Origin: Euryarchaeota archaeon UBA596
GTDB lineage: Archaea; Thermoplasmatota; Poseidoniia; Poseidoniales; Poseidoniaceae
NCBI GenBank assembly: GCA_002498205.1
Contig: DAGQ01000015.1
Location: forward strand, 1 to 32,874
DNA: 32,874 bases
Direction of reading: 5' to 3'
The translations under genes and the position numbers were made by a program. Below are positions 3,563-23,610 of this stretch, piece by piece (the first letter of the stretch is position 1; each line of letters starts with the position of its first letter). Under the pieces are notes generated by a model. The model saw only the letters and a list, made by a program, of their open reading frames with translations, had not been told where the DNA came from and did not search any database.

Positions 3563-3569
3563 GGTGATC
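3561..3569 (+). promoter_or_regulatory. Shine-Dalgarno site GAGGTGATC overlapping the cdc48 TGA stop
   Basis: Nine nucleotides matching the GGAGGTGATC-type SD consensus. The same TGAGGTGA stop/SD arrangement recurs at 6793-6801 (+) and 8255-8262 (-). Related AGGTGAT sites precede the starts at 11415 (-) and 16981 (+). Confidence 0.6.
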
Positions 3570-3571
3570 AT

Positions 3572-3817
3572 ATTAGTATTACTGTTTTTGGATATGAACT
3601 TGTAGGTAGAGAAGTTTTTGATAAAAGTGAAGAATTGCTAGGAATTGTTACTGAGATACATATAAATTACACTAATGGTGGTGTTGAATTCATCTGTGTT
3701 AAGTTAGAAAAAGGAATAAATTCAACTAAATTACCTTGGACTGCTAAAGATAATATTGTACAGGTTCCTCCCAGTGAAATTGAACGGTTAGAAGGCTCAA
3801 TTTTCTTAAGAAGATAG
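3572..3817 (+). CDS. Small PRC-barrel domain protein, with a probable non-canonical ATT start. The track ORF starts at TTG 3635.
   Basis: The frame is open from 3563. The translated stretch ISITVFGYELVGREVFDKSEELLGIVTEIHINYTNGGVEFICVKLEKG... matches the PRC-barrel pattern (l.G..V.d..g..lG.v.di.id...g.v..l.v) beginning upstream of TTG 3635. No in-frame ATG/GTG/TTG lies between 3563 and 3635. A 9-nt perfect SD, GAGGTGATC (3561-3569), sits 2 nt before ATT 3572. Confidence 0.7.
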   Translation: MSITVFGYELVGREVFDKSEELLGIVTEIHINYTNGGVEFICVKLEKGINSTKLPWTAKDNIVQVPPSEIERLEGSIFLRR

Positions 3818-3885: not shown

Positions 3886-5535
3886 GTGCTGATTTTGGTT
3901 AGAAAGAGTTTCAAAAAATATCAACGCCGCGCTTTAATTTCAAGTTTTTATATTGCACTCTTATTCCTTGTATTTCTTTTACTTTCGAGTTATGTAAACT
4001 TAGGAAATGCAAAACAACTTTCTGCTTACGACAATGATTGGGACGATATTTCAGAATTTAGGAAAGAAATTTCTGATTTGGGAATTAGTACAAAAAGTTT
4101 AGTTTCAAGTCCTCTATTGTTGAATGAAATCGAAAACCCAGTTAATACTACGTTTGTGATTAGTGGTATAGAGAAAGATACATTTTCATTACCTTCCATT
4201 GGTTCTGATTCCTCATTTATTAGTTTTAGTGAACCCGAAGGGTATAGTACTTCTGAAATTTCTGCCATTACTAGTTTTGTAGAAAGAGGCGGTACAGTAA
4301 TTGTATTGGATGATTTCGGTTATTCTAGTGGAATTGCAGATGCTGTTGGAATTAGTTACAGTAATCATAGACTATATGATGATGAATATGCTGTTGAATT
4401 AGATTACAATTATGTTTGGATGAATATTAGTCAAAATCATACCGATTGGGAAGATTCAGAAGAATTCCATATAGGCCATTCAAGATGGCATCAAGGAACA
4501 GACCCTACAGGTACTGGAATGCATCCTTGTTCACGTTGGGCTGAAAGCGAAATTACATTTGCTACAAAGGAAGAAGCAGGTTTATGTGGGCATCATTATA
4601 ATTCAACAAGTAAAATGATAGAGTATAATTATGATTACGACTTATTACTTAATGCTCCTTCAGCATTCGAATCTATTGAATTTTCTGGGGCTTTTTCATA
4701 TTATGAAGCAGTAGGTCGTTCTAGCCCTCAATCTTATTTAGACTTGAATAATGATGGAAAAATTACTCTTGAAACTGAAACTGCTCAAACAGAAGCTGAT
4801 GCACAGGGGCCTTTTGACGTCTATATTGAAACCTGTGATTCTTCCGATTGTGCAGATTCTAGTGGAGGTAGAATCTATTTCATTAGTGATGGAAGTGCCT
4901 TAATTAATGCAATTTACAGTTTTGATTCAGCAAATTCAGGAGATTTTGATGAAGATGGTAAATCAATAACAAATATTCCAGCAAACGATAATAGGAAATG
5001 GGCTTTAGATGTAATTGCAGAATCCGCCTTAACAGCTAATAATTTTACAAATAAAGATGCAATATTTGCAAGTAGTGACGCAATGGTAATTTTTGACGAA
5101 AGTAGACATAGTCAAAATGTCTTATTCACAGATGCTTATAATTTAATTTACTTCTTATTAGTATATTTGACAGGAGATGGAATTGGGATGTTATTATTAT
5201 TCATCTTGTTATTTTTGGCATTCGAAGCAGTTTTAATCAAAAAAACAGATCCTGAACCTTGGAGGCATATTTTTAACATAATTTATTATGGATTTGGTGA
5301 TGCAAAAAGATATGGGTATTATACGCGTACTAACAAAATTAAACAAGTATTTTTATCAAGAGTAAGAAATTTAAATGCGCTATCCAGAGAAGAATTTGAT
5401 CGCATGCCTGCTCAAGAATTACAAGATTTGATTAAGGATCCAGTGTTAGTAAAATTTGTTTTTGAAAATAAAAAGTATGATCTTGAACAAACCGTAGCGA
5501 TTGTTAAAAGAATTAAAGGATGGCAAAAGGGTTGA
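3886..5535 (+). CDS. Bitopic membrane protein with a large extracytoplasmic domain, tentatively DUF4350-like
   Basis: GTG start. N-terminal TM (ALISSFYIALLFLVFLLLSSYV) and a second TM near residue 425-450 (IYFLLVYLTGDGIGMLLLFILLFLAFEAVLI), followed by a basic cytoplasmic tail. The segment ERGGTVIVLDDFGYSSGIADAVGISY resembles the DUF4350 core. It sits immediately upstream of a DUF58 gene, as DUF4350 genes often do. Confidence 0.65.
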   Translation: MLILVRKSFKKYQRRALISSFYIALLFLVFLLLSSYVNLGNAKQLSAYDNDWDDISEFRKEISDLGISTKSLVSSPLLLNEIENPVNTTFVISGIEKDTFSLPSIGSDSSFISFSEPEGYSTSEISAITSFVERGGTVIVLDDFGYSSGIADAVGISYSNHRLYDDEYAVELDYNYVWMNISQNHTDWEDSEEFHIGHSRWHQGTDPTGTGMHPCSRWAESEITFATKEEAGLCGHHYNSTSKMIEYNYDYDLLLNAPSAFESIEFSGAFSYYEAVGRSSPQSYLDLNNDGKITLETETAQTEADAQGPFDVYIETCDSSDCADSSGGRIYFISDGSALINAIYSFDSANSGDFDEDGKSITNIPANDNRKWALDVIAESALTANNFTNKDAIFASSDAMVIFDESRHSQNVLFTDAYNLIYFLLVYLTGDGIGMLLLFILLFLAFEAVLIKKTDPEPWRHIFNIIYYGFGDAKRYGYYTRTNKIKQVFLSRVRNLNALSREEFDRMPAQELQDLIKDPVLVKFVFENKKYDLEQTVAIVKRIKGWQKG

Positions 5536-5541
5536 TAAAAA

Positions 5542-6795
5542 ATGTGGACAAGAAAAGCAGCATTTAGTATTACAGGAGGCATCTCTTTAGTTTTGATTGG
5601 AATGATGATTTCAAACTTCCAATTGATGGTAATTGGGTTAACTTTTATTGCATTTACAGTATTAAATGGATGGATTAAGGGACATGGAAATGTCGAGGTT
5701 CAGAGAATTTTATCAGCAGATAATTTGTATAAAGGTGACGATTTATTTGTTGAATTAAGAATAACTAATCGTTCAATGAGGCGTACTCAGCAATTAGAAA
5801 TTTATGATAACGTACCCCATGAGATGAAATTAAGAAGTGGATTAAATTACATGAGAGTGAATTTAGGACCTGGCCAAAGTACTAGAATTAGATATTCTTT
5901 AAGATGCCCCCTCAGAGGTCATTATTCAATAGGGCCAATTAGTATTAGATTCAGAAATACATTCAATTTATTTGCGCAAGAAATGTTTGTTAGCCACCAT
6001 AGTGATTTAATTGTTTTTCCACAAGTTAGAGATGTTGAAGAAGCCTTTATTCGAAGTAGGACTCCAAAAATGTACACTGGTGCTTCAACTTTAAGAACAC
6101 CAGGTCCAGGTTCTGAATTTTACAGTCTGAGGGAATATGTTACTGGTGACCCATTTAAGAATATTAATTGGAAAGCATTCGCTAGAACAGGAGAGTTAAT
6201 GGTAAATGAAAAATGTCGTGATGCTGTAACTGATTTATTTATTATTTTAGATAGTAGAGATATTAGTAGAATTGGAACGGTTCTCAAAAATCCACTTGAA
6301 ATGGGTGCGGTTGCAGCAGCATCTTTAGCATCTTTTTTCATTCAGAGACGAGATAGTGTAGCCCTCGCAATTTATGATGATGGGGTATCATATCTTCCAG
6401 CAGATACTGGAGATAAACAATATTTCAAGATACTAAGTAGTTTAGCTGGGGTTGTACCTAAGGGTTCTATGCCCCTTCAAGCCGTAACAAATTCACTATC
6501 ACCAAGATTTAGTAGAGGATCTCCTGTATTCATAATTAGTAGTATAGAAGGAGACGGAACAGTTCCAAATGCAGTTAGAGATTTAGTTGGAAGAGGTCAT
6601 GAAGTGACAATATTATCTCCGTCAAGTTTAGACTTTGAAAGATTAGTTAGTAGGATTCCTAGAATGAGTTATGAAGTTTTAAAACTTGAACGACAAAATA
6701 GGTTAACAGGTTTAGCAGGCTTTGGAGCATCAGTAATTGATTGGATGCCAGATGTAGAATTATCACAAGCATTATTGCAGGTGAAGGATGTTTGA
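5542..6795 (+). CDS. DUF58 domain-containing protein (family usually partnered with MoxR)
   Basis: Two N-terminal TM helices, then the DUF58 signature SEFYSLREYVTGDPFKNINWKAFARTGELMVNE, followed by a VWA-like region (LFIILDSRD). A 6-nt gap separates it from the upstream gene. Confidence 0.9.
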   Translation: MWTRKAAFSITGGISLVLIGMMISNFQLMVIGLTFIAFTVLNGWIKGHGNVEVQRILSADNLYKGDDLFVELRITNRSMRRTQQLEIYDNVPHEMKLRSGLNYMRVNLGPGQSTRIRYSLRCPLRGHYSIGPISIRFRNTFNLFAQEMFVSHHSDLIVFPQVRDVEEAFIRSRTPKMYTGASTLRTPGPGSEFYSLREYVTGDPFKNINWKAFARTGELMVNEKCRDAVTDLFIILDSRDISRIGTVLKNPLEMGAVAAASLASFFIQRRDSVALAIYDDGVSYLPADTGDKQYFKILSSLAGVVPKGSMPLQAVTNSLSPRFSRGSPVFIISSIEGDGTVPNAVRDLVGRGHEVTILSPSSLDFERLVSRIPRMSYEVLKLERQNRLTGLAGFGASVIDWMPDVELSQALLQVKDV

Positions 6796-6806
6796 GGTGA
6801 TGAATT

Positions 6807-8000
6807 ATGGCAGATGATGTACAACCTCAACAAGAAGGAATGCGAACGCTACATTTAAGATTATTAAGAATTCAATGGCAAGTAGTTACTTTACAACTAA
6901 TTAGTACGATTGCATTACTTTGGATGTATCTAAAAATGGTGGATTTGTATATTGTAGATTCAATTGATCATGCTATGGCCATCCAATTTTTTGATACTCA
7001 ACTAAATTCAGCTAATTTAGAAATGCCATTACCCGCATGGTTGACGGGGGAAGAAGCGATAGGGCTTACTAGATTTTATCCAATAATGGTTCTAAGCATT
7101 GTAATTGGCGGGGGTATGGCAGCATTAACATTTCAAAATCCCGTAATTCAGCGCAGAGTTCGTTTAGGATTATTACTAGCATTTGTATTATGGTTATTTG
7201 GGCCGTTTTTATTAAAATGGTTATTTTCAAATTTTGGAAAAGGAGATTGGTGGATTCCTCCAGATGAATCTGTAGAGTCACTTTTCAAGGGGGTAATAGT
7301 AGTACTAGAAGTTATTTTAATTGGAATTTATATTCTACCTTTAGTCATGGGAATTCGAGGAGTTTGGGGTCTTTCTAAAGGTGCTATTGCATGGGCTACA
7401 GGAATTATGTTACTATTCTTAATTTTGCATGCATTATTGACTTTCCAAATTGTCGAGGATTTATTATTTGGAGTTTCAGGAGATGGTTTAAAGAAGATAC
7501 CTTCTTTGGCAGGAGACCCTACAATTTTAGGATTAATTAGTCCTAATCAATTCAGTCTTTTACAACTTTCATTACTCTTAATAATTTTCCAAGAATCCTC
7601 TATGGGGGTCATCCGTTATCTTGAATATGCATTTAGATTACCTGAAACATGTAAAAAAGATCCAGAATATGTGACACAATTCTACAATTTATTAAACGGA
7701 CATATGGTTCAAACTATTGTATTAATGACACTTTGTGGAATTACAACAATTATAGCATTAGGCTTCCATACTCTTCTTCTTTCTATTGTAGCATCATTAC
7801 CTGGAGACGGTCAATGGGCATATCAAATTCAAGAATCTATTGAATTAGAATTAACTTATGGTGTAGTAATTTCAGCCCTATTATTCTTATTATTGTTAGC
7901 AGGATTAAGATACATATTACCGTGGCAAAGAATTAGTGGATTCGTAGAATCATTATCTCAGAAAAACGTAGAAAACCCTCCCGTTCAAGAGGAAATTTAA
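6807..8000 (+). CDS. Polytopic integral membrane protein of unknown function, roughly 8-9 TM segments by eye
   Basis: Translationally coupled to the DUF58 gene: its TGA stop at 6793-6795 overlaps the SD GAGGTGAT (6794-6801), 5 nt before ATG 6807. Multiple long hydrophobic stretches occur throughout. I recognise no family motif. Confidence 0.75.
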   Translation: MADDVQPQQEGMRTLHLRLLRIQWQVVTLQLISTIALLWMYLKMVDLYIVDSIDHAMAIQFFDTQLNSANLEMPLPAWLTGEEAIGLTRFYPIMVLSIVIGGGMAALTFQNPVIQRRVRLGLLLAFVLWLFGPFLLKWLFSNFGKGDWWIPPDESVESLFKGVIVVLEVILIGIYILPLVMGIRGVWGLSKGAIAWATGIMLLFLILHALLTFQIVEDLLFGVSGDGLKKIPSLAGDPTILGLISPNQFSLLQLSLLLIIFQESSMGVIRYLEYAFRLPETCKKDPEYVTQFYNLLNGHMVQTIVLMTLCGITTIIALGFHTLLLSIVASLPGDGQWAYQIQESIELELTYGVVISALLFLLLLAGLRYILPWQRISGFVESLSQKNVENPPVQEEI

Positions 8001-8248
8001 TTTTTAAAATACTGAATAAATCTACCAATTATTTCTGCTATTGAAAGTGCTAATAATGGAGCAATACATGTGCTAAAGAATAGATTTAACCAAAAGTAAT
8101 CCTCAAACTCATTCCAAATTGAATATGTTAAAAAAATAGTTAGAATTACCGAAAACATTAATCCGACTCTTTCTAAAAAAATTGGATATTTTTTTCCACT
8201 AATTTCTGTTCTTCCCATTAATGTGAGCTCATTAAGCTCTTCTTCCAT
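7997..8248 (-). CDS. Small (83 aa) two-TM membrane protein, last gene of the Roadblock operon
   Basis: ATG at 8248 is preceded on the minus strand by TGAGGTGAAAAATA. The TGA is the stop of the upstream 1051-aa gene and GAGGTGA is a strong SD. Two hydrophobic helices: VGLMFSVILTIFLTYSIW and LNLFFSTCIAPLLALSIAEIIG. Confidence 0.6.
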   Translation of the reverse strand: MEEELNELTLMGRTEISGKKYPIFLERVGLMFSVILTIFLTYSIWNEFEDYFWLNLFFSTCIAPLLALSIAEIIGRFIQYFKN

Positions 8249-8259
8249 TATTTTTCACC

Positions 8260-11200
8260 TCAAATCTCGAAATTCTCAAATTCATTATTTAATTCGTTTA
8301 AAGGATCTTCTTCTTCTTCCTCAGAACTAATATTTCTGCGTTCCCAAGCATGATCTAATTTTGCTAATTCAGCATCAATTGCAATACGATTATCTTCCTC
8401 AATAATATCATCTTCATTATTATTTTCTTCATTAACTTCCTTAGAAGTGATGATTTCCATAGAAGTCCAGCCATCTTCGTCATTTACTGTCTCATTGCTA
8501 ACTTCAACACTTTCAGAATTACTAGCATTATGTGGATTTAATTCACGTATAATTTCCTCAGATACGGAAGGCCTTTCCGATTCTAATTTAATATCTTCAT
8601 GAGGCAGTAGGCCATTTTCTTGAAACCTCCATAGTGATGTTGGTTTTTTAGAACTAAATGTAAGGCCTGTTTCATCTAGTTGTTTCATTGCTTCATCTAA
8701 TGAATTTGCAGTTTTCTCCATAACTACTGCCACACCAGCATCTCCTTGATCAGCTTCTAAGAATATTGAATCTAGTGCAGATTGAATCGTTTCACGTAAA
8801 TTATTTGCTATATGGGGTAATGCTTCAGGCCTATTACATAATGCTTCAAGCCTATATAGAGTTTCTTTTGGAACTCCCAATTCTTCAAGTTGTGTAATCA
8901 TTTGTCTCATTTTTCTCAATAATGTTGTTGATCTTTCAAATTCATCTAGCAATCCTTCTAAATCTAAAACAACTAATTGAACAATTTCTTTTAATTTACT
9001 TTCAAGGCGTTGACGTACAGACCAATTAGTCAATCCTCTAATTGTACTAGCAGTTTCTGGAGTTTGTGATTGTAATAAATCCATAACTTCTGATGATAAT
9101 AAGTATCTGGGGGTTTTTGCAACATTATCTACATTATGTTGAATAATTGTTAAACCTCTTTCTATGGCTCTATCCATCAAAGTTAAACTATATCCAAGCT
9201 CTCTCATCCGATCTAACCTTTGCATTATTGGTGCAAGAGACGAGAAACCATGATCTTGACCTAACAATGCCTGAGCTAATGGTTCATCACGTAATTTTGC
9301 TCTAATTACATTTGCTTCATCAATATCAGATAATGCTGCATCATGTGCATCCTTCAAAGATTCAGCAGTTGAAATCAAATTATTTACTTCAGTTTCAGCC
9401 TCTGATCGTCTTCCACTTAAATCACCTAATTCTCTCATTAATCTACGCCTTTCTTCATGTAATTCTTTTACTTCAGCGTGTAAATGTCCTAATCTTCTTT
9501 CGGAATCTAAGAAATAAGATCTTTCTTCTTCCATTAATTTTCTATGGGATGCAGCTTCTGCATCTAAATCTTCTAATTCTTTATTTTGACTTTCTATTCT
9601 ACGTTCTAATTCATTTGAAATTGCAGTAGCTTGGCGATGTCTTTCTCTTTGTGATTCAAGTTGGTCAGCGACCATTCTATGTCTCCTGTCATCAGCATCA
9701 ATAGATGCTCTTAGTTGTCTTAATCTAATATCTCCCGCTTCAACTTCTGATTTTAATCTAATTTCCTGTTCTGAAAGTTCACTTACCATTCTTTGTAATT
9801 TCTCGCGACTTTCAGATTCACCTACAGCTTGAGCTAATTCTTCAATTCTATGTTCTACCTGATTTTCTAATTCTTTAATTCTATGAGTGAGACTCTCATT
9901 ACGACTTAATGCTAATTCTTGACCATTAGTAGACTCTCTTAAATCCACTTTTAATTGTGAAATTTGATCAACATTATCAGTATTTAATTTTTGCATCTCT
10001 GAGATTCTTGCCCTCATTCCATCTACTTCAACTTTAGAAGATTCATATGATGCTTTAACATTATCACGTTGTCTTTCCATTTTAGCGACTTCTTTAATTA
10101 ATCGTGCTTGTTCTTGTTTTATTTTATCAAACTCTTTAGAATCAATTACAGAAGTAGGCATTAACATTGTTCCACTTTGTGCTTTTGGAAGTAATTTCGC
10201 TCCAGTAGATTTATTCTCTTTCAACGTCCATTCTCCAAGATCTTTTGATAAGTCTTCAATTCCAATTGCAAAACCAAACATTTTCATTAATCTTTTATTT
10301 ATTTGTTTTTCTCTATCTTTTGATCTAGTTCTTGATTTAGCAATATTGTCACAAAATGAATTCAAAGTAAACTTTTTAGTAGTATTCAAATGTTCTTTTA
10401 ATCTTTCAATTTTTGGTAGAGAATATAGTGTTAATTTTGCTTTGGGTGCCGTTGAACTGTAAGCAACATCCTTCATTGATAGTGGTTTAATGGAACGCGC
10501 ACCTACAGGAATCCCTTCACTAATTAAAATATCTAAAACATCTTTTTCATTTTCAACTCTGATATAACCACTTATTGATTCAGAATTTCCTCTTGACAAC
10601 ATTGAAAGTAAATTGTCTAAACCACCTTTACGTTCAAGTGTATTAAGTCCTTCTTCAAGCATACTTCCATCATCATCAGCAATATTTGACATGGGCATTG
10701 AATTTAACTTTGCCATTGAATCAATTAGTATTGCATCATGGTCTGCGCCTTCTGAAACCCATGCTACAATATCTAAATCATCAACTCTCATCATTAAAAG
10801 TGAACCATCTTGCATATGTATTGTAACTCTATTTAATGTAGGTAATTCTAATTTATTTACTACTTTTGATGAACGATCTAATTCAGATTTGATTGTGCTT
10901 GCTAAATTTTCAACATCTACAGGCAATTCTCCTTTTGAATGAATAGTCATGCCTTTTTGAGAAGCTAGTGCCCCTATTACAGATGATCTTTCTGTAAGTG
11001 TGTCTACGAATGAACTTGCTTGTAATGAATCAAATCCACTAGAGAATGAGTGTTTTGCTGTAATTCCAGTTAAGGACGAAATATCATAGAATGCTGCGGG
11101 AACTAATAGCGCAACCTCAGCGAATTCTTTTTGTGACCAAGTAGATCTTACAGTTCTTAATTTATTCTTATTACTTACTTTTTTAAGTTCGTCTATGGCC

Positions 11201-11415
11201 TCTTTAGCACCAATATAATTTTTCTTTTTACCGGTTTTTGCTAAACATCCTACGATTTCTTTTCCTGCTATTAATCTATAACCACATGGAGTTTTAGTTT
11301 TTGGTAAATAATAACTAATTACTCCATAATCAATATCACTACTATTGATTTCTAAATCAGGAGACTCACTCTTTTTTTCTTCACTTCCTAACGGTAAATT
11401 AAACATTTTTATCAC
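8260..11415 (-). CDS. 1051-aa multidomain protein: Roadblock/LC7-like domain, PATAN/DUF4388-like segment, roughly 290-aa coiled coil, helical C-terminal region and acidic tail
   Basis: Residues about 140-240 (SSVIGALASQKGMTIHSKGELPVDVENLASTIK...LNRVTIHMQDGSLLMMRVDDLDIVAWVSEGADHDAIL) fit the Roadblock/LC7 pattern. Residues about 262-310 (GGLDNLLSMLSRGNSESISGYIRVENEKDVLDILISEGIPVGARS) resemble PATAN/DUF4388. Residues about 430-720 are charged heptad-like sequence rich in E/R/K/L/Q. The last 100 or so residues are very E/D/N-rich. No P-loop seen. SD AAGGTGAT lies 4 nt before the ATG. Confidence 0.85.
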   Translation of the reverse strand: MIKMFNLPLGSEEKKSESPDLEINSSDIDYGVISYYLPKTKTPCGYRLIAGKEIVGCLAKTGKKKNYIGAKEAIDELKKVSNKNKLRTVRSTWSQKEFAEVALLVPAAFYDISSLTGITAKHSFSSGFDSLQASSFVDTLTERSSVIGALASQKGMTIHSKGELPVDVENLASTIKSELDRSSKVVNKLELPTLNRVTIHMQDGSLLMMRVDDLDIVAWVSEGADHDAILIDSMAKLNSMPMSNIADDDGSMLEEGLNTLERKGGLDNLLSMLSRGNSESISGYIRVENEKDVLDILISEGIPVGARSIKPLSMKDVAYSSTAPKAKLTLYSLPKIERLKEHLNTTKKFTLNSFCDNIAKSRTRSKDREKQINKRLMKMFGFAIGIEDLSKDLGEWTLKENKSTGAKLLPKAQSGTMLMPTSVIDSKEFDKIKQEQARLIKEVAKMERQRDNVKASYESSKVEVDGMRARISEMQKLNTDNVDQISQLKVDLRESTNGQELALSRNESLTHRIKELENQVEHRIEELAQAVGESESREKLQRMVSELSEQEIRLKSEVEAGDIRLRQLRASIDADDRRHRMVADQLESQRERHRQATAISNELERRIESQNKELEDLDAEAASHRKLMEEERSYFLDSERRLGHLHAEVKELHEERRRLMRELGDLSGRRSEAETEVNNLISTAESLKDAHDAALSDIDEANVIRAKLRDEPLAQALLGQDHGFSSLAPIMQRLDRMRELGYSLTLMDRAIERGLTIIQHNVDNVAKTPRYLLSSEVMDLLQSQTPETASTIRGLTNWSVRQRLESKLKEIVQLVVLDLEGLLDEFERSTTLLRKMRQMITQLEELGVPKETLYRLEALCNRPEALPHIANNLRETIQSALDSIFLEADQGDAGVAVVMEKTANSLDEAMKQLDETGLTFSSKKPTSLWRFQENGLLPHEDIKLESERPSVSEEIIRELNPHNASNSESVEVSNETVNDEDGWTSMEIITSKEVNEENNNEDDIIEEDNRIAIDAELAKLDHAWERRNISSEEEEEDPLNELNNEFENFEI

Positions 11416-11416
11416 C

Positions 11417-11761
11417 TTATATTAACTGAGCAATTGCTTCTTTTTTTGTATCTAATTCATAACTTATTCTACCAAGATTAGGGTTTTCGTCAGTTAAAAT
11501 ACCAATATACTTCCTATCCGGTAATGCACACAAAAGGATAGTTCCATTTTTTGATTCAATCCAACATTGATTAGCATCACCCATGCCACATAATTTCGCA
11601 CTCATATCGATTGTTTGTAGCAGGGCACCAAAGTCCATAAATGAAACGTCTTGTCTTTTAGTACTATAAGTTTGCATCAATTCATTCCCAATATTATCGA
11701 TAATCGCTGCAAATCGAACACTTGGAATATTACAAAATGATGCTAATAATCGTTGTAACAT
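11417..11761 (-). CDS. Roadblock/LC7 (MglB-like) domain protein, 114 aa
   Basis: SVRFAAIIDNIGNELMQTYS...QCWIESKNGTILLCALPDRKYIGILTDENPNLGRISYEL fits the Roadblock/LC7 pattern (pgV.ga.l.d.dG..la ... v.ie...g.l.l..l.....l.vl.d...nlG.v). Its stop lies 1 nt from the start of the 1051-aa gene. Confidence 0.8.
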   Translation of the reverse strand: MLQRLLASFCNIPSVRFAAIIDNIGNELMQTYSTKRQDVSFMDFGALLQTIDMSAKLCGMGDANQCWIESKNGTILLCALPDRKYIGILTDENPNLGRISYELDTKKEAIAQLI

Positions 11762-16980: not shown

Positions 16981-19350
16981 GTGAAAAAAGAAATGATAAT
17001 GATTTTATGTTTATTTTTTAGTATATTTACTAGTATTATTCCTAATTCAATTGCAGAATCACAAAGTATGGAAGATTCTATTGAGTTATCATTTAATTTT
17101 TTAGATGAGGTTTCGGGTCAAATAATTAGTTCTGCTGAAATTTCAGTTATTGAGGGTTGGACTGGAATAGTGCTCCAACAAAATATTATTAATTCAGGAG
17201 ACTCAATTTTTGTGATGTCAAATCATAGTATTAGATTTAAATTTAATGCAGATGGTTATGAAGAGCAGCATTTAATTTCTAATGTTTATTTAATTGCAGA
17301 ATCAATTAATATAAATTTTAATTCCGAATCTGAGAATTATGAAATCGAAAAAGAAGATGAGGTAAATACTTCAGGAGGAGAAATTGAACTAACTTTCTTG
17401 AACTCTATGTCTTCAGATTCAGATTTAGATTTAAGTTGGTTTGCAAATTATTCATTTTCAATGCATATGGGAGTAAATTTACTTCCAATGAAATATTTAG
17501 GGTTGTCTGGACAAATTGATTTTTGGATTGGTGATAAAGATGAAGTATTACAAAATAATGAGATAGAATTATTTTTAATTTGGCTAAACCAACAAGCTTG
17601 GACAGATTCTTATTTTGGGGGTTGTTGTAAGATAGATGGCGAATTTACTCAAACATCAGAGTTAGTTAAACCAGAAAATAGTTGGATCGATTTAGATTTA
17701 GGGACTTGGGGGTGGAATGAGTCTACACTTTTATCAGTACATTCGGGTTTTACTGGTAATCGTTTGTTAGAAATACCTTTACAGAACGATTTGAGACAAT
17801 TAGCAAATATGAAAATATCAACACCTTCTGATTGGGAATTTAGATATTCTCCAAATTTGGATTTATTGGAAGGTAATCCTACAGAATTTACTGTTAATCG
17901 TAGTTTCTCAGGAATTGGAGGTTCAATTCCAATTACTTTTGGAGAAAATACACCTCCTGTTGTAAACCCTAATGTAATTGGCCATATTGGCTTATCATTG
18001 CCTCTGGATAAAAATATAACATTTGATGGATCAAATTCTGTAGACTCTTCTCACGAAATTGGATTTGGTCCTAATTTAGAATGTATGTGGAAATTTGAAT
18101 CAGGTGATATAATTACCCAATTTTCACAAATGTCAGTTACTGTAAATTTAACAGAACTAGGGTTTTCATCAGATACAAATCTTGAAACAATTTTTGAATG
18201 TACAGATCATCAAGGGCTTACTGATTTTTGGAATAAAAGTTGGTATTTGGATTCTAAATCACCTACTCTCAACACTTTACTCGGAGATGCAGAATGTATT
18301 GATAATCCACTTGAAAATAATTTATTAGAATGTGAAAATTTATTGGTAGAATTTAGTCAAATGTTAAATTTCAATTTATCCCTAGAAGACGATGGCCCTT
18401 CTGATTTACTAGTTTATTGGACATCAAACCATATTGATGGGTGGGCTGCAGATGGAAATGAAATGAGTGTAGTATTTTGGCAAGGTCAAAATTCAAATAT
18501 CAATTTTATTGTAAATGATAAACAACATGAACAAAGAGAATTAGCGATTTGGGAATTAAATTTAAGAGTATCAGATGAAGTTGGAAATGATTTAATGAAA
18601 TCATGGAACGTTACAGTTCTAGATGGGTCCTCTCCAAGAATAAATATGAAGTTAAATAATCAATTTGGTTTGGTTGACCCATATTCTGGTATTTTTTCTG
18701 GAGATACAATCAATATTGATTTGTACCCTAGTTATGATGATATTAATTCTATTGAAGATGTTAGGTTTTTAGTTAGTTTAGACGGAGAAACTTTTGCGGA
18801 TAGTAATGAAGTCGGTTGGGAGGGTATAAAATCTGCAGAGATTCCAAAACTTGAAGTGGGTGTTCATGAATTAGTCGTGAATGCTACAGATTTTTCGGGT
18901 AATTCTGCTGAAGAGCGTTTTCAAATAATTGTTCATCCGCCACCAATTATTGACATCATTAGTGCAGATATTTTTATCTCATCAGAAAAATTAATCCAAG
19001 GAGAAAATGAATTAGAATTTAGATTAGTAAATGCGGGTGGTTCTGAATATGATGTAATAATTTGTATTCAAAGCAAATGTTTAGATTATAATGGAACTAG
19101 TTCGACATTTGAAGGATATGGATTTACAAATTTTACATTGAAATATAATTTAAATGAAACAGAAAATTTAGAAGTAAATTATACATTTAAATCTGGGATT
19201 GAAAATATTCAATTTAACAATAGTTATGAATTTGATTTCGAAGAAAATAATGATTTAGAATTCTCTAATACGATTACAATCGTTATATTTTTCTTTATTT
19301 TCTTTTGTGTATTATTTTTTATTAAAATGAAACCAAGAAAGAGAAAATAA
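16981..19350 (+). CDS. Secreted, C-terminally anchored surface protein with a PKD/Ig-like domain; probable glycoprotein
   Basis: Signal peptide MKKEMIMILCLFFSIFTSIIPNSIAES. PKD-like segment NITFDGSNSVDSSHEIGFGPNLECMWKFESGD. Many N-x-S/T sequons. C-terminal TM plus basic tail ITIVIFFFIFFCVLFFIKMKPRKRK. SD AGGTGAT lies 3 nt before the GTG start. Confidence 0.8.
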   Translation: MKKEMIMILCLFFSIFTSIIPNSIAESQSMEDSIELSFNFLDEVSGQIISSAEISVIEGWTGIVLQQNIINSGDSIFVMSNHSIRFKFNADGYEEQHLISNVYLIAESININFNSESENYEIEKEDEVNTSGGEIELTFLNSMSSDSDLDLSWFANYSFSMHMGVNLLPMKYLGLSGQIDFWIGDKDEVLQNNEIELFLIWLNQQAWTDSYFGGCCKIDGEFTQTSELVKPENSWIDLDLGTWGWNESTLLSVHSGFTGNRLLEIPLQNDLRQLANMKISTPSDWEFRYSPNLDLLEGNPTEFTVNRSFSGIGGSIPITFGENTPPVVNPNVIGHIGLSLPLDKNITFDGSNSVDSSHEIGFGPNLECMWKFESGDIITQFSQMSVTVNLTELGFSSDTNLETIFECTDHQGLTDFWNKSWYLDSKSPTLNTLLGDAECIDNPLENNLLECENLLVEFSQMLNFNLSLEDDGPSDLLVYWTSNHIDGWAADGNEMSVVFWQGQNSNINFIVNDKQHEQRELAIWELNLRVSDEVGNDLMKSWNVTVLDGSSPRINMKLNNQFGLVDPYSGIFSGDTINIDLYPSYDDINSIEDVRFLVSLDGETFADSNEVGWEGIKSAEIPKLEVGVHELVVNATDFSGNSAEERFQIIVHPPPIIDIISADIFISSEKLIQGENELEFRLVNAGGSEYDVIICIQSKCLDYNGTSSTFEGYGFTNFTLKYNLNETENLEVNYTFKSGIENIQFNNSYEFDFEENNDLEFSNTITIVIFFFIFFCVLFFIKMKPRKRK

Positions 19351-19369: not shown

Positions 19370-21097
19370 ATGCAATATTCAATATCTGAAATGATAGAAA
19401 AAGAAGAAGTAATTATTCAAAATAGAATAGAACGACTTTCTTTATTTTCAGGCTCAATATTATTTTTAGCAGCTTTTTGGTGTATGTGGCCAATTTTTAC
19501 TAATAATATCGATCCTTTGAAAGTTTTAACTCCAGCTGTAGTTGCTCTTTTATGGGTTGGAATGCTTCCAGATCTTTCCGTTTCAAGTCCCACTACTCGC
19601 TCTAGAATTGGAGCAATAACAAGTATTTTTTGGACACCTCTTGCTGTTTTAGGGATAAACTCAATTTCTAATTCTGGATTTAAATTAATAGGAGGTATAG
19701 TATTAATTATTTGTTCAATGGCATTATTTATTTCATCAAGAAAGATTTTATTTGGGGAATTTAAAGTAGTAAGATATCGCTCAATTATGTATATGATTGG
19801 AGTATTTGCAGGCTTATCTGTATTAATACCTCAAGGTTTTGAGACAAATAATTATGGTATATTCCCCATCTTAGTTGGATTATTAATTTCATTCTCTGAT
19901 TGGTTTGGAAGCGATGAGCAGAAAAATATACGGAGAGAATTCAAACAAAAATTAGATTTAATTGAGGGAGAGTTATTACTCCATAGATCTAAAGGTAGAA
20001 CTGTAGATCAAGCGGCATCTTTAGTTTTAACAGCCTCACAAGAAGGTCACTTGGATCCAAAATTTGGTCTTGAAATTTTATCAAGAGCTAGAGATTCAAT
20101 GACGCGAGCTATTCGTTTAGAAGAAGATATATCAGAAATTAGAGAAGATGCAGAATTAATTATTATGAAAGCTGAAAATATAGCCCCGATGTCTAAAAAA
20201 TCCAGAAAAACATTTATTCAAGCTGAAAGGGAAGTCGAATTAGGTAGTTTAGAAGAAGGAGAATCATTATTTCGTTTAGCAAAAAAACAAGCTAAAGAAA
20301 TTACAGAATGGTGGGATAAAGCAGAAAAAGCAATTAGTAAAGCAAAAAAATTGTTGAGAGAGCATAAAGGTGAAGCAATTCAATCATTAGAAAAAATATT
20401 ATCGGAAGCAGAAACTAATTTACAAAATGAAAACCCAAAAAAATCATTTGAATTTGCAGAATCTATCCCTCTACAGCTATCTTCTGTTGAAGCGAATGCA
20501 GAAATTTCTAATGAATTAATTCAAGTCGCTGAACAAAAAATGAAGGCATCAGAAGGCCTAAATTTAGAATTATGGAATGAAAATTTGAATAGAGCAAAAA
20601 ATGCAATTGAAAAGGGAGATTATAATTTAGGTAGAGGATTGACTGAAAGTATCTTAAGAGAACTAGATAAGGAAAGAGAATCTATGGATTACATTAGGAA
20701 GGCACTAAATAAAAAATCTAAGATTAAATCCAAATGGAAGAATCTAGGAAATAATGAATCTTGGGAATTACGCTTGAAAGAAATTGAAGAAGCCGCTGAG
20801 AACCTGGAATGGAATCATGCAGCAATATTACTTCAACGTTTGAATGAAAGTTTAGAATCGGATACAAAATCATTTTCAGAAGCTAACGAATTATTAGATT
20901 TTGCTAAGAATGAATGGTCTATGTTAAGAGAGAAGTGTGAGAAAATAGGAATTGATATTTTAGATGAAGATCGTAGATATGCAGAACAAAATCTCGCTGA
21001 ATCAATACAATCACTAGAACTTGGTGAATTAGAATTATGTTTAGAAAAGTTGGGAGAATTAGATAAAGCTATGGAAAAACTGAAAAGAAGAGTTTAA
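19370..21097 (+). CDS. Membrane protein (about 5 N-terminal TM helices) with a long cytoplasmic alpha-helical repeat / coiled-coil domain; unknown function
   Basis: Hydrophobic N-terminal 190 aa. The C-terminal 370 or so aa are K/E/L/A-rich with roughly six ~55-aa modules sharing A/E-x3-L/I-x2-G-D/E-x3-A, e.g. NRAKNAIEKGDYNLGRGL, IQAEREVELGSLEEGESLFRLA, YAEQNLAESIQSLELGELELCLE. SD GGTGAG lies 4 nt before the ATG, and the gap to the surface protein gene is 19 nt. Confidence 0.8.
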   Translation: MQYSISEMIEKEEVIIQNRIERLSLFSGSILFLAAFWCMWPIFTNNIDPLKVLTPAVVALLWVGMLPDLSVSSPTTRSRIGAITSIFWTPLAVLGINSISNSGFKLIGGIVLIICSMALFISSRKILFGEFKVVRYRSIMYMIGVFAGLSVLIPQGFETNNYGIFPILVGLLISFSDWFGSDEQKNIRREFKQKLDLIEGELLLHRSKGRTVDQAASLVLTASQEGHLDPKFGLEILSRARDSMTRAIRLEEDISEIREDAELIIMKAENIAPMSKKSRKTFIQAEREVELGSLEEGESLFRLAKKQAKEITEWWDKAEKAISKAKKLLREHKGEAIQSLEKILSEAETNLQNENPKKSFEFAESIPLQLSSVEANAEISNELIQVAEQKMKASEGLNLELWNENLNRAKNAIEKGDYNLGRGLTESILRELDKERESMDYIRKALNKKSKIKSKWKNLGNNESWELRLKEIEEAAENLEWNHAAILLQRLNESLESDTKSFSEANELLDFAKNEWSMLREKCEKIGIDILDEDRRYAEQNLAESIQSLELGELELCLEKLGELDKAMEKLKRRV

Positions 21098-21792: not shown

Positions 21793-23610
21793 TTAATTTG
21801 TATATGGTATATCAACATCTAATTGCATGACATATAATCCAGTTGTGATACAAGATGCATATGTAATTCCATCTTGCCATTCAGCAGCCCATAAAAATGG
21901 AGTCCAACCAAAGTCATAGTAATCAGAATCAAGTTGTGAACCGTCTACACCATGTGGTAAATAGAATGCCACAGTAGAATCAAAATGAACCTCAGTATTA
22001 TTGTCTTCATCATTAGCTGCCATTAGTGTTTCAATATCGACTACCCATAAGCCAGCATGATAATGTGAGATGTATAATCTTCCATCCCATCCACCTCCGT
22101 GGGAAGTATCTGTAGTTTCATCTGTAATGAAATATTCAGAATCAAGATTATGTGGGCTGAAAAGCAACCATTCTTCAGCACTTGGATGAGCTTCACAATC
22201 TGCTCCATAACAATGTTCATGCGCATAAGGAATTTCCCAATCGTGAATTAGTTCCGGTAAGAATCTTAAATTTCCATTTTCCATTTTATATTCGGTTGTA
22301 TCTAAAAGATATGTCATACCAGTTCCAACAGAGGTTGAAAGTACTTCAGTAGCAGCAAGTGTAAGATGTCTTTTCCCTTCATATCCTAAATGGGTAGCGT
22401 CAACCATTTCAGGAAATGGCTCTGTGTAGTGGATATAAGATGAACGTCCGCCATTTTCATTCCCGTTAGTTCCACTATCAGGTAAACCATCATTATCAAA
22501 ATCAGAAAACTCCATCCATTGCCCTACTTCTGGAGCCCTCCATCTACACATAAGGGGATTTCCCAAACCCGCTTTACATGTTGTAGCCATTGGGACATAT
22601 AATTGAGGAGAGTTAGTGGGGTGAGGAACATCAGAAACATCTGCAATTCTTAACCCAGCTTCCCAATATGCGCCATAGAGGTATGTTCTTCCATGTCTTG
22701 GGTCTTCAGTATCATTTCCTGGCCATAATTGTACAGTCATATCGTGAATGTAAATCCAACCACCATTAGTAGAAGCCCAATTAACTTCATACTCTCCAAC
22801 TTTAATTACTGTGTGTCCAACTCCAGATGAAGGAACACCATCTAATATTCTTGCAGCAGAACCTTGTAAATTTAGGTGAGCAATGGTTACTCCTCCACAA
22901 GCTTCACCCACAGCAGTATCACAATCATCATAATCGGGGTTTGCAACAAAAATATACCATTCATTATCAATCATATGTGTATAAAGATTATGTGGTCCAC
23001 TTGGATGATCTGCATCATACCAAGAATCAACATGTATTGGGTTAGTTTTATCTGTTACATCAATTAAATTTACAGATACTTGAAATGGATCTGACCATTC
23101 TCCAACATTAGGATCTGCATATCCTGGATCAATTAATTGATTTTGAGTTATTACATATTCTCGCCCATCATATTCAAGATACTTAACATCTAATACCTGG
23201 GTATTTGGATCATAATATTTCCCTACTTGGGTAATATTTCTTGGATCTGTAACATCAGTAATATGAAATTCAGACCATCCTGCTTGATACACATATGTTC
23301 TACCATCAGGAGCCGTAGCAACTTGAATTTCAGCATTACCCGGATTTGTAAGCGGTTCAAAATCTAATAACTCAACATTCCCAGAAGATAGATTATGCTG
23401 AGATGCGTTTCTGTGGTCATGCCCTTCACCTTGTAAAAGAGGGTCGCCACCACTAAAAATTGGATTTACACTTGTTTCATTCATATCATCATTACTAAGA
23501 AAGAAAATTGAAGTAGAAACTACGCTAATTACTACTAAAAATGTGGTGACTAAGATTAAGATTTCCTTATTCCCAAAATCAATAGGAGTTACAAGTGATT
23601 GTTCACCCAT
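21793..23610 (-). CDS. Extracytoplasmic LVIVD-repeat beta-propeller protein with an N-terminal membrane anchor
   Basis: N-terminal TM ILILVTTFLVVISVVSTSIFFL. Repeated LVIVD-type strands: FHITDVTDPRNITQVG, VNLIDVTDKTNPIHV, GLRIADVSDVPHPTNSP, GLWVVDIETL. His/Cys-rich patches: GEGHDHRN, YAHEHCYGADCEAHPS, SHYHAG. Confidence 0.8.
   Translation of the reverse strand: MGEQSLVTPIDFGNKEILILVTTFLVVISVVSTSIFFLSNDDMNETSVNPIFSGGDPLLQGEGHDHRNASQHNLSSGNVELLDFEPLTNPGNAEIQVATAPDGRTYVYQAGWSEFHITDVTDPRNITQVGKYYDPNTQVLDVKYLEYDGREYVITQNQLIDPGYADPNVGEWSDPFQVSVNLIDVTDKTNPIHVDSWYDADHPSGPHNLYTHMIDNEWYIFVANPDYDDCDTAVGEACGGVTIAHLNLQGSAARILDGVPSSGVGHTVIKVGEYEVNWASTNGGWIYIHDMTVQLWPGNDTEDPRHGRTYLYGAYWEAGLRIADVSDVPHPTNSPQLYVPMATTCKAGLGNPLMCRWRAPEVGQWMEFSDFDNDGLPDSGTNGNENGGRSSYIHYTEPFPEMVDATHLGYEGKRHLTLAATEVLSTSVGTGMTYLLDTTEYKMENGNLRFLPELIHDWEIPYAHEHCYGADCEAHPSAEEWLLFSPHNLDSEYFITDETTDTSHGGGWDGRLYISHYHAGLWVVDIETLMAANDEDNNTEVHFDSTVAFYLPHGVDGSQLDSDYYDFGWTPFLWAAEWQDGITYASCITTGLYVMQLDVDIPYTN

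Follow-up and report, generated by a model that had tools for sequence, protein, structure and literature searches.

Contig DAGQ01000015.1 of Euryarchaeota archaeon UBA596 (assembly GCA_002498205.1), of which positions 1 to 32,874 were analysed as one stretch of 32,874 nucleotides (nt), hereafter the window, carries a compact three-gene operon on its minus strand. Our preferred reading, which we hold with moderate confidence, is that this operon of the Candidatus (Ca.) Poseidoniales encodes a lineage-specific, Roadblock-based scaffold that is probably associated with the membrane, the assembly and function of which we infer. Judged from its sequences, the operon is conserved in and specific to the order, and it encodes one free and one fused Roadblock unit, a rod of fixed length and a protein with two transmembrane (TM) helices, with no nucleoside triphosphatase (NTPase) nearby. 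The three closely packed minus-strand open reading frames (ORFs) described in the original prediction are present, at 11417-11761, 8260-11415 and 7997-8248, and with the start of the middle one corrected, as explained below, the genes are the following.

11417 to 11761, minus strand: gene 1, a 114-amino acid (aa) single-domain Roadblock/LC7 protein that begins MLQRLL (ORF and family profile)
8260 to 11406, minus strand: gene 2, a 1048-aa multidomain protein with its start at ATG 11406 and its stop codon at 8260-8262
7997 to 8248, minus strand: gene 3, an 83-aa protein with two predicted TM helices (hydropathy and family alignment A7)

The small gene 1 product had been assigned to the Roadblock/LC7 group from its sequence pattern, and a family profile (A6), built with the small genes that adjoin diverged members of the large-gene family, upholds this assignment with matches near 1e-5. 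Searched against the PDB, the profile aligns over its full length with Rv3364c (E value 8.9e-6), the Robl_LC7 protein 7f8m (1.1e-5), the Roadblock/LC7 structure 7yh1 (1.3e-5) and CvnB5 (1.9e-5), followed by 9jue and by MglC, the latter at 0.014. The Pfam model Robl_LC7 (PF03259) is matched by four of eight members of the gene 1 family, with a best E value of 3.8e-5; the window protein alone gave no Pfam match, and a shallow profile made from homologs of 74-99% identity reached 7yh1 at only E = 0.009. The accompanying label "MglB-like" is too specific, because no MglB chain is found among the PDB matches of profile A6 at E values up to 10, MglC being the only match from that group.

The protein encoded by gene 2 is considerably more complex, and its alignment and profile comparisons divide it into seven segments.

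11053 to 11406, minus strand: aa 1-118, N-terminal domain with an invariant MFxLPxG N-terminus (alignment A3)
10693 to 11052, minus strand: aa 119-238, embedded Roadblock/LC7 domain (profile A4, Pfam and hhalign)
10372 to 10692, minus strand: aa 239-345, conserved domain with the pattern LPxGFxLRExKGGxD...GY...GxPVGxR (alignments A3 and A5)
10135 to 10371, minus strand: aa 346-424, conserved basic helix carrying the RTRSE motif, and variable linker (alignment)
9292 to 10134, minus strand: aa 425-705, two-part coiled-coil stalk of 281 aa (periodicity, alignment and AlphaFold2 helices)
8572 to 9291, minus strand: aa 706-945, helical C-terminal domain (alignment; helical in AlphaFold2, with a predicted local distance difference test score, pLDDT, of ~50-66)
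8263 to 8571, minus strand: aa 946-1048, acidic tail; its C-terminal peptide, DPLNELNNEFENFEI, is conserved, amphipathic and acidic (composition)

A second Roadblock-like domain had been proposed at aa 140-240 of this protein, and it was recovered at approximately aa 119-238. In the case of this segment, profile A4 matches CvnB5 at 3.8e-4, LAMTOR4 at ~0.08 and 7yh1 at 0.096, along with Rv3364c and 7f8f, and Roadblock-fold proteins account for 14 of the 17 PDB matches listed. The consensus of A4 matches Robl_LC7 with an E value of 4.8e-5 and 23.5 bits (cut-off 23) across model positions 5-89 of 91, while among individual sequences the model is matched by 3 of 15 full-length family members (best E 6e-4) and reaches the window protein at E = 0.11, over aa 150-213. 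The embedded and free Roadblock families align with each other in register in hhalign, with an E value of 9e-4, a relation that is seen only with diverged sequences, as profile-profile comparisons from shallow alignments gave no similarity between the small and large proteins. The N-terminal domain and the segment following the Roadblock domain were considered as extra Roadblock copies and rejected, since hhalign finds no other related domain pair, and by these comparisons the gene 2 protein has exactly one Roadblock domain, near its N-terminus.

The domains on either side of the embedded Roadblock unit are of a different character. The segment aa 1-118 has no relatives in Pfam, NCBIfam or the PDB, and aa 239-345 has no PDB match. 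The latter region had been likened, at aa 262-310, to a PATAN/DUF4388 segment, for which no HMM support was found in any test: PF14332 does not match the whole protein, the 15 full-length members (E values up to 0.1), 13 isolated segments (up to 10) or the consensus (up to 5). Loss of the PATAN segment removes the specific link to MglA/MglB polarity modules that had been drawn from it. Insertions and deletions ahead of the tail are confined to the region of aa 346-424. As a separate observation, both the MFxLPxG N-terminus (11386-11406) and the acidic C-terminal peptide (8263-8307) resemble docking motifs.

The stalk of the large protein is constant in length. The charged, heptad-like stretch that had been placed at about aa 430-720 proved to be a coiled coil at approximately aa 425-705, which is 281 residues long and gap-free in all 11 diverse full-length members, with a dominant 3.5-residue periodicity, and between reference residues 451 and 900 there are zero gaps or insertions across 75 unique full-length sequences whose pairwise identity falls to 30%. 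The heptad register is unbroken at ~416-516 and again at ~533-694, and between the two runs lies a conserved discontinuity, LAxAxGxxxS (~aa 517-535), in accord with the two helices that AlphaFold2 places at 426-533 and 537-701 with a pLDDT of 50-75. If fully extended, the stalk would measure ~40 nm (281 x 0.148 nm, by standard coiled-coil geometry). The AlphaFold2 models back, with low confidence, only these long helices and the helical C-terminal domain. When the large model was compared with PDB structures in Foldseek, the matches were only generic helical hairpins (PI3K p85 iSH2, EnvC and RipA), none of which reached an E value of 0.001 or below.

Beyond the stalk, the C-terminal domain is the best conserved part of the protein, at 50-55% identity compared with 33-41% for the protein as a whole. 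The helical character that had been attributed to this region agrees with the AlphaFold2 model, though at low confidence, and aa 706-945 gave no significant match in Pfam, NCBIfam or the PDB, with only noise such as FliS (E 0.19) and PIK3R6 (0.059). The tail is very acidic, as had been noticed, with 15-17 aspartate or glutamate residues per 50; it varies from 80 to 148 aa across the family, with a variable length of acidic linker, and its last 15 residues (8263-8307) follow the motif [DE]xLxxLExxLxx[LIF][ED][LIFM]-COOH, a pattern reminiscent of MIM1-type helices.

Two alternative explanations of the large protein bear directly upon this architecture. That it is a chromosome-associated protein of the SMC/Rad50 type is very improbable and we have rejected it: NCBIfam SMC and Rad50 models do match aa 424-695 with E values of 1.6e-9 to 2e-4, and some members carry coiled-coil COG labels from the Joint Genome Institute (JGI), but the matches are to the coiled coil only, at 20-36 bits compared with cut-offs of 567-1087, and the protein has no Walker A motif and no Pfam match to SMC/Rad50 head or hinge domains. 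A second alternative is that the protein assembles itself into a cytoskeleton or lattice and is built of head, rod and tail; in-register packing would then fix the length of the rod, and the small Roadblock protein would serve to cap the assembly or to regulate it. Intermediate-filament rods combine a conserved length with an internal discontinuity, and by structural analogy the strictly conserved rod length and internal discontinuity seen here, the globular head and tail domains on either side of the rod and the presence of the large gene, apparently as a single copy, throughout the order would all suit such a protein. However, there is no match to Pfam Filament or another filament family, the AlphaFold2 model is uninformative and a fixed length is equally to be expected of a spacer or tether, and we consider this alternative rather unlikely.

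The 83-aa product of gene 3 had been described as a protein with two TM segments, and two hydrophobic segments were indeed found, with hydropathy peaks of 1.94 and 2.07. The first predicted helix spans approximately aa 23-45 (8114-8182) and the second aa 52-76 (8021-8095), and homologs at the diverged loci are of similar size, at 84-89 aa. In the gene 3 family (alignment A7) the motif YPxxxE is invariant before the first helix (8171-8188), and by the positive-inside rule this N-terminal peptide and the C-terminus should both be cytoplasmic. The gene itself has a convergent neighbor, a 397-aa membrane-protein gene (6807-8000), and the 3' ends of the two overlap by 4 nt at 7997-8000, an overlap that also occurs at loci L001 and L016.

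The range of the family was defined with an exhaustive HMMER search of 1.84 billion representatives, in which the query consisted of the N-terminal 427 aa and the C-terminal domain, with the coiled coil omitted. This search recovered 49 representatives, including about ten full-length proteins of 1020-1089 aa with 33-41% identity and an identical layout, and no relatives of the large protein outside the Ca. Poseidoniales family. All of the homologs come from marine metagenomes or metagenome-assembled genomes that carry the label Methanobacteriota/Euryarchaeota or Candidatus Poseidoniales (Marine Group II); they span the two families of the order, Ca. Poseidoniaceae and Ca. Thalassarchaeaceae, and throughout the order the large gene is conserved and apparently single-copy. 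The source databases label the members hypothetical, save for automatic COG labels, and the literature searches returned no paper on the large-protein family or on small GTPases in the Poseidoniales lineage. The architecture had been described as one that is not recognized from a characterized system, and in the Pfam, NCBIfam, PDB and HMMER searches the large protein is likewise without a match to a characterized family.

The gene neighborhood supports a conserved grouping of the three genes, which had been put forward as a point to be examined in related genomes. A scan of genome contigs with coiled-coil peptide patterns found relatives only at 74% identity or above, and a metagenome scan with alignment A9 added 80 loci, so that counts are given over 97 loci in all. 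At all 80 of the 80 assessable loci the small Roadblock gene immediately precedes the large gene, four apparent misses being artefacts of ORF start calls, and the two-TM gene lies directly downstream in all lineages surveyed except one; a further locus with a truncated large ORF (L063) is also without it. In the exceptional lineage (L014 and L015) its place is taken by a 448-aa FG-GAP-repeat membrane protein (11221-12567 in L014), which has a signal anchor at its N-terminus and a TM helix at its C-terminus and whose gene shares 50 nt with the end of the large gene. Among the closest relatives the entire neighborhood is collinear and thus little informative, whereas at loci with 33-41% protein identity the flanking methyltransferase, ExoIII and 205-aa genes are variable and the small Roadblock and two-TM genes stay in place. 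The intergenic gaps in the operon mostly fall between -4 and +13 nt.

The two junctions of the operon are organized in the same way, each with a Shine-Dalgarno (SD) sequence that abuts the stop codon of the preceding gene.

11412 to 11416, minus strand: SD sequence GGTGA of the large gene, abutting the TAA stop of gene 1
8255 to 8259, minus strand: SD sequence GGTGA of the 83-aa gene, abutting the TGA stop of gene 2

The junction between genes 1 and 2 reads TAA-GGTGATAAAA-ATG and that between genes 2 and 3 reads TGA-GGTGAAAAATA-ATG, with a gap of 11 nt. A strong SD sequence before each downstream gene, the TGA stop directly ahead of the second of these and the 11-nt second gap are thus as they had been described. 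The first junction requires correction: the listed GTG start of the large ORF (11413-11415) sits within its own SD sequence, GGTGA at 11416-11412, and all large-protein homologs share the N-terminus MF(N/S)LP, from which it follows that the true start is the ATG at 11406 (11404-11406) and that the protein has 1048 aa and a 10-nt upstream gap, instead of 1051 aa and a 1-nt gap. At the diverged loci (L012-L017, 33-41% protein identity) eight of the nine junctions read have a GGTG-type SD sequence that either adjoins the stop codon or overlaps it, and TGA-GGTG before the two-TM gene is kept in L001, L012, L016 and L017. With the short gaps conserved as well, the claim that the three genes are co-translated gains support, and from these junction sequences they look like a translationally coupled operon.

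One important consideration is the absence of a GTPase, and the corresponding possibility that the operon encodes a small-GTPase regulator like MglB, Ragulator or CvnB, that is, a GTPase-activating or guanine nucleotide exchange (GAP/GEF) platform for a GTPase encoded elsewhere, with the stalk and the membrane protein serving only to localise it. Most characterized Roadblock platforms act on small GTPases (PMC10933270, PMC4316618), archaea encode MglA group 4 and Rup GTPases (PMC4316618), and the top PDB matches of the two Roadblock units include CvnB5 and LAMTOR4, which are members of GTPase systems. An orphan Roadblock gene is moreover not the unusual arrangement that had been suggested, since in a census of 749 MglB homologs from prokaryotes 328 were orphans (PMC4316618). 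However, Walker A and NKxD motifs are absent from the three operon proteins, no GTPase occurs among the proteins of the 32.9-kb window, and the flanks (up to ~4-10 kb) of the 97 related loci are free of ORFs with a GTPase signature; the statement that the large protein lacks a P-loop therefore holds, and so, for the window and those flanks, does the statement that no GTPase is in view. Co-evolving MglA-MglB pairs are usually neighbors, and neither in the window nor in the flanks of the 97 loci is there a GTPase within four genes, the distance by which MglA coupling has been judged (PMC4316618). Similarity specific to MglB is lacking and the PATAN link to MglA modules is unsupported, and some Roadblock proteins, dynein LC7 and Rv3364c among them, serve purposes that have nothing to do with GTPases. 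We regard regulation of a small GTPase as possible but unlikely.

For the Roadblock-based scaffold that we favor, the working of the operon can be sketched in outline. Roadblock proteins are homo- or heterodimeric platforms, some of which take up a helix from a partner, as LAMTOR1 does with LAMTOR4/5 and the dynein intermediate chain with LC7 (PMC10933270). Given this dimeric nature, the free Roadblock protein probably binds the embedded domain, either by pairing with it in a heterodimer or by stacking, itself a dimer, upon a pair of embedded domains that the coiled coil would bring together. The stalk would then fix the distance between the Roadblock head and the C-terminal domain, and the two-TM protein could connect the assembly to the cytoplasmic membrane. 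Such a complex might serve as a structural spacer or tether, or as an adaptor by which a partner encoded elsewhere, possibly though not necessarily a small GTPase, is recruited or positioned.

A bolder version of the scaffold, which we put forward only tentatively and think unlikely, is a lineage-specific, membrane-tethered cytoskeletal or organizing element of Marine Group II archaea in which a heteromeric Roadblock head would be carried on a coiled-coil ruler of fixed length, ~40 nm, with no dedicated GTPase. If true, it would be a prokaryotic counterpart of the Ragulator and dynein-intermediate-chain scaffolds, independently invented around the Roadblock fold, and its partner would be positioned via the conserved C-terminal domain and the terminal acidic peptide.

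Several results weigh against a scaffold of this kind. The hhalign probability for the embedded and free Roadblock units is 23%, a marginal similarity, and three domains of the large protein have no known relatives in the Pfam and PDB searches. AlphaFold2 models made before the diverged homologs were available have a mean pLDDT of 43.5 for the 114-aa family (9 sequences) and of 45.2 for the full large protein (10 sequences), values too low for either model to be of use for the fold of the Roadblock units or their interface. The lineage in which the two-TM gene is replaced indicates that this gene is not strictly required. Finally, the neighborhood is largely collinear throughout the order, with PyrB, PyrI and TtuA on one side of the trio and the membrane protein, DUF58, DUF4350 and Cdc48 genes on the other, so that synteny alone is weak evidence for a functional link.

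These last points could also be taken to mean that the three genes have unrelated functions and are neighbors by descent only, held together by the generally rigid gene order of the lineage: collinearity extends over most of the 20 kb around them throughout the order, and in one lineage the third gene has been replaced. We consider this improbable: the gaps of -4 to +13 nt and the stop codon with its GGTG-type SD sequence are kept at 33-41% protein identity, the small-large pair is never split even where the methyltransferase and ExoIII genes in the flanks are variable, and both Roadblock proteins share a fold that forms dimers.

Among known Roadblock systems, the closest relatives of the two Roadblock units by sequence are CvnB, Rv3364c and the Asgard Roadblock proteins. 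The actinobacterial CvnB and Rv3364c proteins are the best profile matches of both units (CvnB5 at 3.8e-4 for the embedded and 1.9e-5 for the free unit, Rv3364c at 8.9e-6), but a conservon includes in addition the sensor kinase CvnA, CvnC and the GTPase CvnD, none of which is found in the window or in the related flanks. The Asgard proteins Thor-RB and MKD1-RB (PDB 7yh1) are likewise archaeal single-domain Roadblock proteins, which form homodimers and are matched over the full length of the free unit's profile at 1.3e-5 (PMC10933270). In the case of the Asgard archaea, however, the genomes have many Rab-, Rag- and MglA-like GTPases, whereas the Poseidoniales operon has none in view and has a fused partner that is unique to it. 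The Myxococcus proteins MglB and MglC are also small single-domain prokaryotic Roadblock proteins, with MglC among the PDB matches (E 0.014), and in that polarity module paralogous Roadblock dimers bind one another; the present operon differs in its archaeal host, in having no MglB match at E values up to 10 and no MglA within four genes, and in having no evident RomR- or RomX-like partner, as the operon proteins match no other Pfam family.

By possible way of working, the closest analogies might instead be Ragulator and dynein LC7 on its intermediate chain. Ragulator (LAMTOR1-5) also brings several Roadblock units together in one assembly with a separate small membrane-anchoring subunit (PMC10933270), a likeness that here concerns the genes only, and the profile of the embedded domain matches LAMTOR4. 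It differs from the Poseidoniales operon in that the latter has no Rag-like GTPases nearby, a putative anchor with two TM helices in place of a lipidated wrapping peptide, and one Roadblock unit fused to a coiled-coil protein of ~1000 aa, so that homology is limited to the Roadblock fold. In the case of dynein, a dimer of the Roadblock protein LC7 sits on a long, partly coiled-coil scaffold in a structural role that is unrelated to GTPases (PMC10933270). In the Poseidoniales protein it is the scaffold itself that carries a Roadblock domain, and the sequence relation is again limited to the fold. We know of no dynein or other motor in archaea.

Few archaea of the surface ocean are as abundant as the Ca. 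Poseidoniales, which are uncultured and have an essentially uncharted cell biology, and the large protein, which is order-wide, apparently single-copy and strongly constrained (50-55% identity in the C-terminal domain and an invariant rod), is for these reasons a good candidate for a core structural or organizing function. The operon widens the known uses of Roadblock domains in archaea to one in which such a domain is carried on a predicted long, rigid stalk and is encoded along with a free Roadblock protein and a small membrane protein, with no GTPase nearby, and it bears on whether Roadblock platforms began as regulators of GTPases or as general dimeric adaptors. Its practical value is as a well-defined target of three recombinant proteins, which now has a deep alignment.

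The remaining genes of the window mostly encode housekeeping proteins: a partial aldehyde dehydrogenase, Cdc48, a PRC-barrel protein, DUF4350 and DUF58 proteins, a membrane protein, a methyltransferase, TtuA/NcsA, ExoIII, PyrI, PyrB, a GHMP kinase, SCO1, ThrRS, NAD kinase, CTP synthase, an epimerase and a thermosome subunit, together with several further proteins that have no family match. On the opposite strand to the operon, and adjoining it throughout the order, is a cluster of DUF4350, DUF58 and the 397-aa polytopic membrane protein (3886-8000, plus strand), which has no MoxR-type ATPase in view and has Cdc48 just upstream. Between Cdc48 and the DUF4350 gene is an ORF of ~84 aa (3563-3814, plus strand) that encodes a PRC-barrel protein (Pfam PF05239, E 1.7e-5), a counterpart of which is called at 81 aa in L003 and L014; PRC-barrel proteins (CdpB) are FtsZ-division factors in archaea. 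Finally, three long ORFs at 16981-19350 (789 aa), 19370-21097 (575 aa) and 21793-23610 (605 aa) have no Pfam or NCBIfam match, and in diverged Poseidoniales loci similar-sized, Pfam-negative ORFs occupy the positions of the 789- and 575-aa ORFs, beside the GHMP kinase gene; judged by size and position, these look like further lineage-specific proteins.

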